In this document: piece after piece, positions 1-5,383 of the stretch
Layout of the letters: each line of letters starts with the position of its first letter
Numbering within the stretch: the first letter of the stretch is position 1
Assembly: GCF_056746865.1 (NCBI RefSeq)
Contig: NZ_CM163382.1
Reading direction: 5' to 3' (one strand)
DNA length: 64,000 nucleotides
Position numbers and translations under genes: made by a program
The notes under the pieces: model-generated
The model's input: only the letters and a program-made list of their open reading frames with translations
Databases searched by the model: none
Told to the model about the DNA's origin: nothing

Positions 1-31
1 GCCCTGAAAGGCATGGTCATTCCGCATTGCA
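1..31 (-). other. Fragment homologous to an internal region of the beta-propeller paralogs; possible truncated fourth copy continuing left of the window
   Basis: 18-nt exact match (gaaaggcatggtcattcc, positions 7-24) to paralog B at about 3118-3135; minus-strand translation gives GMTMPF, a motif shared with paralogs B and C; the adjacent 32-119 is AT-rich non-coding. Confidence 0.3.
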
Positions 32-767
32 TTTTTAAAGTTTTTTATCCATTATTTATTCTGATTAATAATCAAAATTGAAATCCTGTCTTTGAAATGT
101 AATGGCAGTGCAACAATCACTATTCAGAACAGAAATCACCTTTCTCTGCCTGAACACAATTAATCAATATATCCCAGTGACCGTTCTCTAAGCGAGCTAC
201 ACCATAATACCCAGCCAGAACCAGGGTTTTTTCTGTACAACTGATATAACCAGTGCACATTTTTACCTCGCTGGGTAAATCTGGCTGAACAACATCATCC
301 CCGATTATTTGCCACACACCATAATCAGACGTTGCCCAGACACAATTTTCATACCATACCATTTGCCTGAACGGTAAGGTTAACTCCCCCCGATGAATCA
401 TCTTCCATTGATCTTTTCGACCTTTAAATACAGTACCGCTTTGCGCACCGATATAAACATAGCCATCCTGACCACAACAGATAGATTCAATGAGCATGTT
501 GCTGGGAAAATGAATTTGCCTCCATTCATCACCATCGAAATTCCAGACATCTCCTTTACCGCCTGCGGCATAGATATCATTTTCAGAGAAGCCATCCACA
601 CAACTAAAACCAGCAGCATCCAGGAATAGCATCTGTTCACGGATTGTTTTAATTTCATCTTGCGCAGGGAGATGGATACCTTTATTTAGTTTCTCCCAAT
701 TATTTCTATCTATCCTGCGAACAACACTACGTGCGGATCCTACAACATACAATCGATGGATTTGCCC

Positions 768-1673
768 CTATATTTCCAGACACCTGTTATCACTTAACCC
801 ATTACTGGCCCGCTGCCGTAGATATTCCCGTGGCGAGCGATAACCCAGTGCACTATGCGGATGCCATTCGTTATAATGCTCGAACGCCTCTGCAAGGTTC
901 TTTGCTGCCGTTAACCCGTCTGGTTTAGGCATGATACTGATGTAGTCACGCTTTATCGTTTTCACGAAGCTCTCTGCTATGCCGTTACTCTCCGGACTCC
1001 GCACCGCCGTGTTCTTCGGTTCAAGCCCCAACATCCGGGCAAACTGCCGTGTTTCATTAGCCCGGTAGCATGAACCATTATCCGTCAGCCACTCTACTGG
1101 AGACGCCGGAAGCTCGTTGCCGAAGCGGCGTTCCACCGCTCCCAGCATTACGTCCTGTACTGTTTCACTGTCGAAGCCGCCCGTAGTGACTGCCCAGTGC
1201 AGTGCCTCACGGTCACAGCAGTCCAGCGCGAACGTGACTCGCAGTTTTTCTCCGTTATCACAGCGGAACTCGAACCCGTCAGAGCACCATCGTTGATTGC
1301 TTTCTTTCACGGCCACTTTGCCAGTATGTGCCCGTTTCGATGGCGGTACAGCGGTTTTTCGCTCAAGCAACAGCGCATTCTGGCGCATGATCCGGTAAAC
1401 ACGTTTGGCATTGATCGCAGGCATACCATCAAGTTCGGCCTGTCTGCGAAGCAGCGCCCATACCCGACGATAACCATACGTGGGCAGCTCTCCGATAACA
1501 TGGTGTATACGGAGAAGCACATCCGTATCATCTGAGTGACGGCTGCGGCGACCATCTTTCCAGTCATCGGTTCGTCTGAGAATGACGTGCAACTGCGCAC
1601 GCGACACCCGGAGACAACGGCTGACTAAGCTTACTCCCCATCCCCGGGCAATAAGGGCGCGTGCGCTATCCAC
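768..1673 (-). CDS. insD: IS2 transposase OrfB (InsD)
   Basis: 301-aa ORF recognised as IS2 InsD (ends ...[31 protein letters not shown]); integrase catalytic core. Confidence 0.9.
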
Positions 1674-1996
1674 TTTTTTGCACGCCCGTATTCAACGGCT
1701 TCTTTAAGGAGTTCATTTTCCATCGTTTTTTTGCCGAGCAGGCGCTGGAGTTCTTTAATCTGCTTCATGGCAGCAGCAAGTTCAGAGGCAGGAACGACCT
1801 GCTCTCCTGCGGCCACAGCAGTAAGACTTCCCTCCTGGTATTGCTTGCGCCAGAGAAATAACTGGCTGGCTGCCACACCGTGTTGCCGGGCAACAAGGGA
1901 GACCGTCATTCCCGGTTCAAAACTCTGCTGAACAATAGCGATCTTTTCCTGTGTAGTACGCCGTCTGCGTTTCTCCGGTCCTAAGACATCAATCAT
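1631..1996 (-). CDS. insC: IS2 OrfA (InsC), helix-turn-helix protein
   Basis: ORF contains [56 protein letters not shown]; start placed at the internal Met matching the 121-aa InsC; overlaps insD as expected for a frameshift-fused transposase. Confidence 0.85.
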
Positions 1997-2497
1997 CTGC
2001 TCTCCAATGACTAGTCTAAAAACTAGTATTAAGACTATCACTTATTTAAGTGATATTGGTTGTCTGGAGATTCAGGGGGCCAGTCTAATCGACCACCAAT
2101 AGTCCGGGTATTGCTAATGGCAAATTCATATGGGATCGGTTCTTCAAGCCCTTCAAAACCACTACCTATAGCAAAAACCTCATTTTCCATTGTAACGCCC
2201 ACGTACTGACTGAATGGAATACTGGTTGTAGCCGAAAATATCTTGTCCATTCCTTCATAACCGCTGTATCCCCATTGCTCTCCTAATGGTTCATCAAAAA
2301 AAAAGGAAACAAAATTTTTTCTTGCCAGATGTTCTTCCATTACAGGGTCTATATCATCTCGCTTTTCTCGTGTAGTTATATAAATATAACCAGTGTCTCT
2401 TACTGCAACACCATTAATATAAAACCCTTTGAATATTTCATTGTACTCATCTTGAGTAATAATCATGTTTTTAATCTCATATTATTTTCATTTGTTT

Positions 2498-2812: not shown

Positions 2813-3365
2813 AATGTGCTATCCGTGTACCCACTTTCCTTTAAATTAACTGCTGGCCCGGGAGGCTATTCAAACGCCATTGAATCAAAGAGGACATTCC
2901 AGGCATTACCATCATAAATAGCAGCTCCTCTGGAGCCACAAACCATCATCACTGTCCCATCGGGGGAAACATCAATTCTTTTACTTAAAACGGCCACTTC
3001 AGGAGGGACGGGTTTATGTTTTGCATGCATGGCGAGCACCAGTTTGTCATCTTCCAGTACCCAGATGCCATAATCACTGGCACACCAGAGACGTCCATCA
3101 AACCATCCCATGTCGAGGAAAGGCATGGTCATTCCACCATGCGTAATTTGTGTCCATTGCTCATTGCGACCCTTCCATATAGCACCGTCAAAATCAGCAA
3201 TATAAACAAATCCGTCACCGGCACAGCAAACTGTGTACAGAAGTTTATTTGTCGGAAAAGGGAGTTTTTTCCATTGCTCACCATTAAAGTGATAAACGGT
3301 TCCCGTTCCACCCACTGCATACATATCTGACTCGGAAAAACCAGATAAATCCTGAAATAAGCTTC
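2796..3365. repeat. Direct repeat copy 1, about 570 bp: 3' half of paralog B plus about 70 bp of its 3' flank
   Basis: Near-identical to 3943..4512 (a handful of mismatches); repeat spacing 1147 bp. Confidence 0.85.
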
Positions 3366-3906
3366 TGGACATCGACTCAGCCTTCCGTTCCAGGAATCCA
3401 TCGGGAACAGGAATAGTTTGTGAAGCATCCAGCCAAACCTGATGATTAATTCGTTTATATATTCTTAACCCTCCCCCAATTGCATAGACACTTGTTCCTA
3501 CTCTGACTACCTTAATTATAGCTGTTCTCATGTCTGAGGATTTAGAAATAGGAATATCCAGATTATTTTCTCGTCCCTTGTATTCTCTGGTTTTGTAGCT
3601 TATGACTTCACAGTCGATATCAACTATAACTAATTCAGTTTGGGAAGGTGACCATCCAGCCGATATCGTTGGATAGCTCAAATTACCGAAAGACATCCCA
3701 AACACCCTGTTTTCAGGAGGGTTGTCAATAACTATTGATACCAGCTTGTGTTTAGGCATGTAATAGTCGTTGCCATATTCGATATGATTTTCATCAATTT
3801 TTTCAATTAATAATAAGCCAACGCGGCCATGTTCAAAGCCATATGTACAATCATATACTTCAAAATTTTTAAAGGTTTTATCCCAACGTTCTTGACTAAT
3901 AATCAT
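2866..3906 (-). CDS. Hypothetical protein, paralog B (346 aa) with beta-propeller-like repeats resembling BNR/Ycf48 or Kelch blades
   Basis: Intact 346-aa ORF; the C-terminal ~155-160 aa (from DLSGFSESDMYAVGG) are identical to paralog C, the N-terminal half about 60 percent identical; repeated blade-like motifs (YAIGGG...W, YAVGGTGTVYHFNGEQW, FDGAIWKGRNEQW, YDGNAW). Confidence 0.75.
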   Translation of the reverse strand: MIISQERWDKTFKNFEVYDCTYGFEHGRVGLLLIEKIDENHIEYGNDYYMPKHKLVSIVIDNPPENRVFGMSFGNLSYPTISAGWSPSQTELVIVDIDCEVISYKTREYKGRENNLDIPISKSSDMRTAIIKVVRVGTSVYAIGGGLRIYKRINHQVWLDASQTIPVPDGFLERKAESMSRSLFQDLSGFSESDMYAVGGTGTVYHFNGEQWKKLPFPTNKLLYTVCCAGDGFVYIADFDGAIWKGRNEQWTQITHGGMTMPFLDMGWFDGRLWCASDYGIWVLEDDKLVLAMHAKHKPVPPEVAVLSKRIDVSPDGTVMMVCGSRGAAIYDGNAWNVLFDSMAFE

Positions 3907-3942: not shown

Positions 3943-4512
3943 ATCTATAAACGTTAGTTTCCATAATATGCTATCCGTGTGCCCACTTTCCTTTAAATTA
4001 ACTGCTGGCCCGGGAGGCTATTCAAACGCCATTGAATCAAAGAGGACATTCCAGGCATTACCATCATAAATAGCAGCTCCTCTGGAACCACAAACCATCA
4101 TCACGGTCCCATCGGGTGAAACATCAATTCTTTTACTTAAAACGGCCACTTCAGGAGGGACGGGTTTATGTTTTGCATGCATGGCAAGCACCAGTTTGTC
4201 ATCTTCCAGCACCCAGATGCCATAATCACTGGCACACCAGAGACGTCCATCAAACCATCCCATGTCGAGGAATGGCATGGTCATTCCACCATGCGTAATT
4301 TGTGTCCATTGTTCATTGCGACCCTTCCATATAGCACCGTCAAAATCAGCAATATAAACAAATCCGTCACCGGCACAGCAAACTGTGTACAGAAGTTTAT
4401 TTGTCGGAAAAGGGAGTTGTTTCCATTGCTCACCATTAAAGTGATAAACCGTTCCCGTTCCGCCCACTGCATACATATCCGATTCGGAAAAACCAGATAA
4501 ATCTCGGAATCG
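3943..4512. repeat. Direct repeat copy 2, about 570 bp: 3' half of paralog C plus its 3' flank
   Basis: Near-identical to 2796..3365. Confidence 0.85.
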
Positions 4513-5058
4513 ACTTCTGGTTATTGCTTCTACCTTCCTATCTAACAATCCATCGGGGACAGGCAGGTATGTAGAATGTTCCCGCCAAATTTGGTGATCA
4601 ACACGTTTGTATATTCTGAAACCACTACCGATAGCGTAAACACTGTTTTCAATTCGTACTACTTTTATTATAACGGAAAACATATCGATAGAACCTGGTA
4701 TGAGTATATTTATACTTTCTTCTACTCCTTTGTATACATCTTCTTTATAACTCATAACATCACGGTCCTGACTGACCATAACATATTCGGTCTGAGATGG
4801 GGGCCAACCAGAAGATATAGTCATCAGAGATATCCCTGTTGCGCGACGACCATATATGCGATATTTTTTGGAGAGGGTAAACGTAATGGAAATTAATCTC
4901 TTTTCAGGTGGGTAAAAAGGGTTTTCATATTCGGCATGCTCCTCATCTACCACTTCAATCAATGAAAGACCTACTTTTCCATGCTCGTAACCATAGGTGC
5001 AGTCATATATATAAAAGCCTTTGAGATATTTCTGATACGATTCTATATCTATGATCAT
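4018..5058 (-). CDS. Hypothetical protein, paralog C (346 aa) with beta-propeller-like repeats
   Basis: Intact 346-aa ORF; C-terminal half identical to paralog B, N-terminal half diverged; low GC. Confidence 0.75.
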   Translation of the reverse strand: MIIDIESYQKYLKGFYIYDCTYGYEHGKVGLSLIEVVDEEHAEYENPFYPPEKRLISITFTLSKKYRIYGRRATGISLMTISSGWPPSQTEYVMVSQDRDVMSYKEDVYKGVEESINILIPGSIDMFSVIIKVVRIENSVYAIGSGFRIYKRVDHQIWREHSTYLPVPDGLLDRKVEAITRSRFRDLSGFSESDMYAVGGTGTVYHFNGEQWKQLPFPTNKLLYTVCCAGDGFVYIADFDGAIWKGRNEQWTQITHGGMTMPFLDMGWFDGRLWCASDYGIWVLEDDKLVLAMHAKHKPVPPEVAVLSKRIDVSPDGTVMMVCGSRGAAIYDGNAWNVLFDSMAFE

Positions 5059-5083: not shown

Positions 5084-5383
5084 TTATAACACCCCCATCA
5101 CCTGCATTGATTTTTGCAGAGTTAAATCACCACAGGTATAAGCGTCTTGGTAAGCTTTATCCAGTTGCGCTTTCAAACAAGATTTATCACAACCGTACAT
5201 TAATGCAACCTCATCAATTACCATACATCTGGCATCTTTATAACTCATTTCTTTTCCAAAATGCTTTTCTTCTATTAGAGTGCCTGTAGCTGAGTGTAAT
5301 GCACCATGTGAACCAGTACGATTGTCTTTTCCTTCCAGACAAATTGTAGGCGCTTTGCCTTCGGTATATTCCCCCCCCAGCAC
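5084..5383 (-). CDS. Hypothetical small protein (99 aa), tightly coupled upstream of paralog C
   Basis: ORF ends 26 bp before the paralog C start; GTG start codon inferred; a run of 8 G on the coding strand sits at codons 3-5; no recognisable homology. Confidence 0.35.
   Translation of the reverse strand: MLGGEYTEGKAPTICLEGKDNRTGSHGALHSATGTLIEEKHFGKEMSYKDARCMVIDEVALMYGCDKSCLKAQLDKAYQDAYTCGDLTLQKSMQVMGVL

Follow-up and report, generated by a model that had tools for sequence, protein, structure and literature searches.

Introduction

Arrays of orphan T6SS immunity genes have been described in Vibrio cholerae, where they are brought about by sequential effector displacement (Kirchberger et al., 2017; PMC5361080), and the AID clusters of gut Bacteroidales are orphan immunity arrays as well (bioRxiv 10.1101/471110). 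Effector clusters with DUF2169 genes have been grouped as “synteny type A”, with vgrG1b-Tse7/Tsi7 of P. aeruginosa and PefE of P. mirabilis as examples (PMC11883445). Tox-GHH2 is cited in PMC9635880 as a characterised T6SS nuclease domain. Here, we analyze a stretch of 64,000 nt of an E. coli chromosome (NZ_CM163382.1), in the following called the window, which carries an island between nfrB and cusS. A full-text literature search for this nfrB-cusS island of E. coli did not return any earlier description. The island contains three paralogous genes A, B, and C, and a first-pass annotation of the window had proposed the remnant of a fourth paralog directly at its left edge.

Window positions 1-756 are 100% identical in 153 of 5,426 complete E. 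coli genomes, and strain 118UI (NZ_CP032515.1, locus L001) was used as reference for the left flank, so that an L001 position minus 9000 gives the window position. IS2 at 757-2086 aside, the window and 118UI are identical across the following 8.9 kb. The other loci compared are those of Citrobacter sp. Cf108 (L002), Salmonella enterica (L005), and Escherichia sp. 94.0001 (L008).

Immunity Paralogs and Toxin Fragments of the Island

All genes and gene fragments of the array are located on the minus strand. In the 118UI island PGAP calls a Tox-GHH2 fragment, a PAAR-like fragment, a 336-aa protein corresponding to paralog A, and two 346-aa proteins named “WD40/YVTN/BNR-like”, which are the paralogs C and B; further calls are a 92-aa hypothetical protein and a SUKH-3 gene between two ISEc1 copies. 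Paralog A would encode 336 aa if intact, as it does in 118UI (L001 10130-9120). In the window, its 3′ two-thirds are located at 120-752 and its 5′ third at 2087-2466. The IS2 copy in between (757-2086, minus strand, target duplication approximately AATCG) is absent from 118UI, and as it splits a gene that is intact there, one of the three surviving immunity genes is knocked out in this strain. Paralog A is followed by its native 3′ flank (75-119), which shares ~90% identity with the sequence downstream of the A-type gene in Salmonella enterica, and a 28-mer spanning the end of the gene and this flank, GTTCTGAATAGTGATTGTTGCACTGCCA, is conserved.

Paralogs B (2866-3906) and C (4018-5058) each encode 346 aa. 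With respect to each other, B (2813-3906) and C (3946-5058) are chimeric: the first ~550 nt are just 48-65% identical, whereas the last ~440 nt, the 53 nt past the stop codon, and the start of the PAAR-like toxin gene are 97-100% identical. This identity pattern suggests that the 3′ half has recently undergone recombination or gene conversion. Neither Pfam nor NCBIfam contains a model for this immunity family, and PDB searches returned no solved structure; a homologue with 33% identity is present in Pseudomonas sp.

All toxin genes in the window are fragments. A PAAR-like (DUF4150/PIPY) N-terminal fragment of 104 aa is located at 2498-2812 (PF13665, E = 1.5e-11), and a C-terminal fragment of a Tox-GHH2 nuclease toxin with 99 aa is found at 5084-5383 (PF15635, E = 8.8e-08). 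Between paralogs C and B, a relic of 19 nt (3946-3964) with the codons METNVY represents the start of a further PAAR-like toxin gene. Since only these 19 nt are left of it, the whole C-B toxin has been cleanly deleted.

To the left of the window lies a SUKH-3 immunity gene with an ISEc1 copy on either side (L001 5189-8476), and a 66-aa ORF resembling a fragment of the BrxL ATPase (PF13337, E = 7.9e-05) is also located between the two copies. This SUKH-3/ISEc1 module seems to be a further orphan immunity module whose origin differs.

Relatives With Intact Toxin-Immunity Cassettes

The Citrobacter locus L002 displays the gene order Hcp, VgrG, DUF6484, DUF2169, thiolase-like, three toxin-immunity pairs, HEAT-repeat, and thioredoxin. 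Its thiolase/ketosynthase-like protein comprises 348 aa (NCBIfam NF004798, E = 5.5e-74), and the immunity proteins of the first, second, and third cassette have 336 aa (A-type), 343 aa, and 346 aa (B/C-type), respectively. Both a PAAR-like (PF13665) and a Tox-GHH2 (PF15635) domain are present in the second and the third Citrobacter toxin. An assembly gap interrupts the first toxin gene; a PAAR-like start precedes the gap, and the called product gave only a weak Tox-GHH2 hit. Moreover, the 3′ end of the thiolase-like gene recurs within L002 4277-11330 as stubs of 143 aa and 42 aa in front of the second and third cassette, respectively, and it is likely that this repeated stretch is a homology anchor for cassette exchange. 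The set of VgrG, DUF6484, DUF2169, thiolase-like gene, DUF4150 effector, and ARM/HEAT gene is present in L002 and in Escherichia sp. (L012) and partially in Salmonella enterica (L005), and in Escherichia sp. Sa2BVA5 the cluster is intact. A full-length thiolase-like gene occurs in none of the 5,426 complete E. coli genomes, which ruled out a comparison with a copy of E. coli's own.

In Escherichia sp. 94.0001, an intact 524-aa PAAR-like/GHH2 toxin is directly followed by a gene to which paralog A is 97.6% identical, and B/C-type genes adjoin intact toxins on the downstream side in Citrobacter and in Escherichia sp. L012. Because of this gene position beside intact toxins in the relatives, paralogs A, B, and C are predicted to be immunity genes. 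Their intact forms would most likely still protect against Tox-GHH2 nuclease toxins from related enterobacteria. The E. coli island thus consists of tandem genes homologous to immunity genes that are found elsewhere directly downstream of intact effectors, and the cognate effectors are degraded at the locus itself to the 99-aa GHH2 fragment, the 104-aa PAAR-like fragment, and the 19-nt toxin start. With all toxins reduced to fragments and no full-length thiolase-like gene in complete E. coli genomes, the island is a fossil: its array consists of orphan T6SS immunity genes, and the cluster type is that of Tse7/PefE.

A Probable Vestige of a Fourth Immunity Gene at the Window Edge

The window opens with gccctGAAAGGCATGGTCATTCCgc, and the 18-mer GAAAGGCATGGTCATTCC at 6-23 was found by pattern search to be identical to 3118-3135 (+ strand) within paralog B. 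Read on the minus strand, it corresponds to nt 772-789 of B, the codons GMTMPF. The exact match of 18 nt had already been recognized in the first-pass annotation, but was placed there one base further right at 7-24. Paralog C contains the 18-mer at 4270-4287 with one mismatch. The GMTMPF motif on the minus strand had also been read correctly, although its frame is not open: it is a stop-bounded stub of 13 codons, MQCGMTMPFRAKA*, which terminates four codons past the motif.

We assign a probability of roughly 85% to the reading that window positions 1-74 together with ~16 nt to their left are a vestige, left by the collapse of a fourth immunity gene (B/C type) directly downstream of paralog A, a reading built on sequence comparison. 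It goes back to an alignment of the 140-nt spacer to paralog B in which long jumps in B were permitted (spliced alignment). The best path comprises three collinear B/C-type blocks with a total of ~91 nt, reaching from window position 74 to 16 nt left of the edge. Block 1 (31-74, approximately B nt 2-42) covers the start-codon region and reads (L)IINQNK*W(D)KNFKN compared to MIISQERWDKTFKN in B. Block 2 (window 30-7, approximately B nt 765-789) contains the 18-mer as its core. Block 3 (from window position 6 to 16 nt beyond the left edge, L001 9006-8984, approximately B nt 880-899) carries the AKHKP codons and matches GCAAAACATAAACCCG with three single-G insertions. Three pieces of a B/C-type gene therefore survive in correct order and orientation, namely the first ~42 nt, ~25 nt around GMTMPF, and ~20 nt around AKHKP, and the vestige has no open frame. 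A short-word BLAST search of the then unexplained segment had already detected a second B-specific patch, GGATAAAA(A)ACTTTAAAAAT, which equals B codons 9-15 (WDKTFKN) with one mismatch. The remnant of a fourth paralog proposed for the edge is thereby supported. The sequence to its right (32-119), which had been taken as non-coding, turned out to consist of the first 42 nt of the B-type gene (31-74) and the 3′ flank of paralog A (75-119).

The spliced alignment reached a score of 56, compared to 24.8 ± 4.0 with a maximum of 43 for 400 shuffles. As controls, the reverse complement of B scored 23, which is background, and paralog A was at background as well. When the 18-mer was masked and the remaining blocks were tested irrespective of their position, the observed score was reached by 11 of 200 shuffles, which is marginal. 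The single blocks were also tested against the region of B that is set by collinearity, with 2000 shuffles each. Block 1 as a whole was reached by 28 of them, the part of block 1 that is absent from Salmonella (1b) by six (p ~0.003), and block 3 alone by 12 (p ~0.006); the part of block 1 common to Salmonella, its first ~29 nt, was reached by 255 and is not significant alone.

That the 18-mer might have arisen in an intergenic spacer by chance or through base composition is suggested by its shortness, its sharp boundaries with respect to today's B, and the AT-rich surroundings, and also by the background score of the test for a decayed toxin-gene 5′ end described below. However, the match occurred in none of 100 dinucleotide-preserving shuffles of the window, and a rough expectation for uniform base composition is ~5e-3 across the entire window and ~5e-6 when only this spacer and strand are considered. 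Such a coincidence would furthermore not go along with two more collinear blocks at p ~0.003 and ~0.006, nor with a match that grows when other alleles are compared. We therefore consider it very improbable. Concerning membership in the family, the collinear similarity of the three blocks, the 18-mer, and the 20-nt match to other alleles exceeds chance. An open reading frame of family length (~340 codons) or a long truncated ORF is not present, as stop codons occur in every frame of the relic. Searches for an RNA family, a promoter-like site, and a terminator in the relic and the junction were empty.

Besides the marginal outcome with the masked 18-mer, several observations count against the vestige. 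Block 3 requires three single-base insertions, the string CTTTC(A/G)GGG can alternatively be assigned to the thiolase-like gene, and the Salmonella spacer, which shares the first ~29 nt of block 1, gave no score against B when taken as a whole. The weakest links of the chain are block 3 and that part of block 1 which is also present in Salmonella.

The vestige can be compared with further alleles of the family. When the alleles of Escherichia sp. Sa2BVA5 are used for comparison, 20 nt (window 6-25) match exactly, and 23 of 25 nt match going further upstream. Just upstream of the 18-mer the relic reads GCGG, which agrees with the GGC-type alleles as in Sa2BVA5, compared to GGT in B. The N-terminus of the relic, IINQ..WDKNFKN, lies within the natural variation of the family (e.g., MIINK..W.K.FKG or MIISQERWDKTFKN), and N-termini of the type MIIN... 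are present in living family members. The frame-shifting A-run in block 1 is polymorphic (A5/A6) among E. coli strains, and the relic is kept in Escherichia sp. 94.0001 with one substitution. These data bear on the idea that a short patch was copied recently from the resident gene B into an unrelated spacer by gene conversion or templated repair. The 100% identity to B over 18 nt with abrupt ends would fit such a patch, as would the clear recent recombination between B and C with its 97-100% identity over the 3′ 440 nt. However, the sequence upstream of the 18-mer follows the GGC-type alleles of other Escherichia and not GGT as in B, the N-terminal block has IIN-Q and not IIS-Q as in B, and the junction is identical in Escherichia sp. 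94.0001 on a contig of 8 kb without a B-type gene. A single patch would also not give three collinear blocks, and we regard this origin as quite improbable. Due to the GGC-type fit and an N-terminus within family variation, the vestige derives from an independent allele and was not recently copied from B. Speaking against the vestige, no intact gene was found at its position in Salmonella, Shigella, Citrobacter, Escherichia sp. 94.0001, or Escherichia sp. Sa2BVA5.

The Junction Left of Paralog A

Read on the minus strand, the sequence downstream of paralog A (L001 9119-9046) is 90% shared with Salmonella, and its last ~29 nt double as the start of block 1. The Salmonella counterpart enters a toxin-gene start, ATGGATACGAAC..., which is cut by an ISAs1-family element after 16 codons. 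In Salmonella enterica (L005 13673-13790) the spacer after the A-type gene is shared including ATTATTAATCAG and switches at ATGGATA to the start of the PAAR-like toxin. In E. coli, ~66 nt follow (L001 9045-8980), which contain the 18-mer and have no counterpart in Citrobacter, Shigella, or Salmonella. The ATGGATA of Salmonella had suggested that these 66 nt are the decayed 5′ end of a PAAR-like toxin gene, an idea that was dropped, as alignments to seven toxin starts were at shuffle background; the shared ATGGATA is possibly a microhomology junction. Other spacers of the array were rejected as source of the segment as well, as there is no similarity.

At L001 8979, homology to the thiolase-like gene begins sharply, where the relatives read ...FYFRETE|LAVLRS. 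The fragment (L001 8979-8777) comprises 203 nt of the 3′ end of this gene; its identity to the relatives is 77-79%, and that to a second copy, located in L008, is 98%. The 18-mer region itself was rejected as diverged thiolase-like sequence, since just one in-frame 8-mer (CTTTCGGG in L008) is common to both, and this 8-mer is possibly microhomology at the fusion point.

The thiolase-like fragment is followed by a piece of 115 nt (L001 8777 to ~8668, i.e., −223 to −332 relative to the window), which begins with the ISAs1-type end motif CAGGGAAAGA. It starts with the ISAs1/ISEc1 terminal motif TGTCAGGGAAAGA and is otherwise unlike ISEc1; an internally deleted ISEc1 was ruled out, as the match is limited to 13 terminal nt. 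In thousands of E. coli genomes the same piece accompanies Rhs-linked ISEc1 copies, with a variable gap of 44-62 nt to the IS, and in Escherichia sp. 94.0001 it is present at the deletion junction without any ISEc1. It may be either a solo IS end or a MITE.

Next to it, a remnant of 46 nt (L001 8667-8622, 333-379 nt left of the window edge) encodes QIAFPTNMFLYSVCC and is 82% identical to the 343-aa immunity protein of Citrobacter. This fifth family member belongs to the 343-aa type and hence to a different subtype than the relic, from whose 18-mer it is separated by the thiolase-gene fragment. It abuts ISEc1, which extends leftward from L001 8625/8621. In Escherichia sp. 94.0001 the junction is 98.5% identical across 1,589 nt and ISEc1 is missing; the junction is therefore old. 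There, the 46-nt piece belongs to a longer remnant of a 343-type immunity gene, namely its C-terminal 130 codons, and the HEAT and thioredoxin genes come next. The 46-nt remnant in E. coli and the 130-codon remnant in L008 bear out the suggestion that the array once extended leftward.

This map also concerns the nature of the truncation. The first-pass annotation had suggested a 5′-truncated paralog whose remainder lies to the left of the window, where the 3′ part would then continue as a longer and possibly intact segment, and indeed the 18-mer and GMTMPF are located at the edge and oriented like the array. However, the left sequence is known from a 100% identical genome, that of 118UI, and no contiguous paralog is found there: the GMTMPF frame ends after four codons, and in the 9 kb left of paralog A BLASTN and TBLASTN detected nothing contiguous with the 18-mer that resembles A, B, or C. 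The start-codon region of the relic lies to the right of the 18-mer (74-31), and the relic ends ~16 nt left of the edge at the thiolase-like fragment, which runs leftward from L001 8979. The further paralog similarity that was expected left of the window is thus missing next to the 18-mer, and a 5′-truncated gene of this kind is extremely unlikely.

The ORF WP_000647578.1 Across the Junction

The 92-aa protein called by PGAP, WP_000647578.1 (L001 8716-9027), overlaps window 1-27, and its ORF comprises 103-111 aa. The leftward ORF of 103 aa uses a frame other than that of GMTMPF. Its homologues in Citrobacter, Salmonella, and Shigella align solely from “LAVLRSLEHKV...” on; upstream of LAVLRS they read “...SHESFYFRETE”, compared to “MRNDHAFQGKSMKARV” in E. 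coli. Since the homologues align only from LAVLRS on, the ORF is a fusion and the 18-mer lies in its non-homologous part. By its sequence, WP_000647578.1 is a chimera, in which relic block 3 is joined to the thiolase-like fragment and the 115-nt piece.

One could nevertheless argue that a real small gene (92-111 aa) begins in this region and is expressed, and that the likeness to the paralogs is incidental, given that PGAP annotates a CDS and that an ORF of 103-111 aa is conserved with 97-100% in Escherichia. Against this stand the chimeric composition of the ORF out of three unrelated pieces, including the 115-nt piece with the IS-end motif, a start that moves with the A-run polymorphism, and the lack of a Pfam family. 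Moreover, searches of the relic for promoter-like sites, terminators, and RNA families were negative, and all homologues are fragments of the same kind. A genuine small gene is accordingly quite unlikely. Very doubtful, too, is the possibility that the chimeric ORF is an expressed newborn gene, which might for example act as a mimic of the thiolase-like C-terminus and hinder incoming PIPY-effector complexes.

Proposed History of the Array

For the vestige of a B/C-type gene, the following course of events is proposed. A fourth B/C-type immunity gene would formerly have been located downstream of paralog A, with its intact start (ATGATTATTAATCAG...) ~45 nt after A. Of the gene body, ~95% would then have been lost through two or more internal deletions and a truncation at the 3′ end, and the truncation probably joined the vestige to the 203-nt thiolase-like 3′ fragment. 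Normally, this fragment precedes every toxin-immunity cassette, and its probable role is that of a homology anchor when cassettes are exchanged. A further IS-associated deletion and an ISEc1 insertion would have removed the next toxin gene and the next immunity gene except for 46 nt. At the joints there are short identities, namely TGG(G)ATA at the position of block 1 and the toxin start and CCTTTC or CTTTCGGG at the fusion, which suggest microhomology-mediated events. The vestige would hence record a turnover of the array by homology-anchored and microhomology-mediated recombination and is presumably functionless today.

For the annotation of such genomes, this means that the “hypothetical protein” over the relic is a chimera of gene fragments, and that the neighbouring “WD40/YVTN/BNR-like” proteins are, from their sequence context, best read as putative orphan T6SS immunity proteins against Tox-GHH2. 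Relic and 46-nt remnant together indicate that the island formerly had at least five immunity genes. The array is eroding via microhomology deletions and IS elements, with three immunity genes kept, which is consistent with selection for defence after loss of the weapon. Vestiges in polymorphic-toxin/immunity arrays are an expected by-product of the known recombination-driven turnover, and the relic is an ordinary, non-functional genomic scar that matters modestly, as a historical record.

Comparison With Known Systems

The island shares some features with the orphan modules of Rhs/CDI systems and with H-repeat (ISEc1) rearrangements, as displaced 3′ toxin fragments are found together with immunity genes. 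ISEc1/H-rpt elements are located at the edges, and directly left of the window two ISEc1 copies enclose the SUKH-3 gene. However, the toxins are of the PAAR-like/PIPY-GHH2 type and are neither Rhs nor CdiA proteins, and the island has no Rhs core.

The arrays of V. cholerae and the Bacteroidales are similar as well. As in these, the E. coli island consists of tandem immunity genes of one family whose effectors were displaced or degraded, and relatives carry the same immunity genes beside intact effectors. Furthermore, a conserved upstream stretch is repeated at the cassette boundaries, which here is the thiolase-like 3′ end together with the PAAR-like domain, and this is consistent with homology-facilitated illegitimate recombination. 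In contrast to V. cholerae and the Bacteroidales, the E. coli array is detached from the T6SS apparatus and VgrG, and all effectors are fragments. It has also been eroded by IS2, ISEc1, and internal deletions, which left vestiges of ~91 nt and 46 nt.

With regard to “synteny type A”, the relatives in Citrobacter and Escherichia sp. show the corresponding order of VgrG, DUF6484, DUF2169, thiolase-like gene, DUF4150/PAAR-like-Tox-GHH2 toxin, immunity gene, and HEAT/ARM gene. The E. coli window, in contrast, has toxin fragments and immunity genes only, and a 203-nt thiolase-like piece is found in the island. Since the T6SS apparatus and the accessory genes are missing except for fragments, the E. 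coli island is not itself a member of “synteny type A”, but it derives from a DUF2169 cluster of this type.
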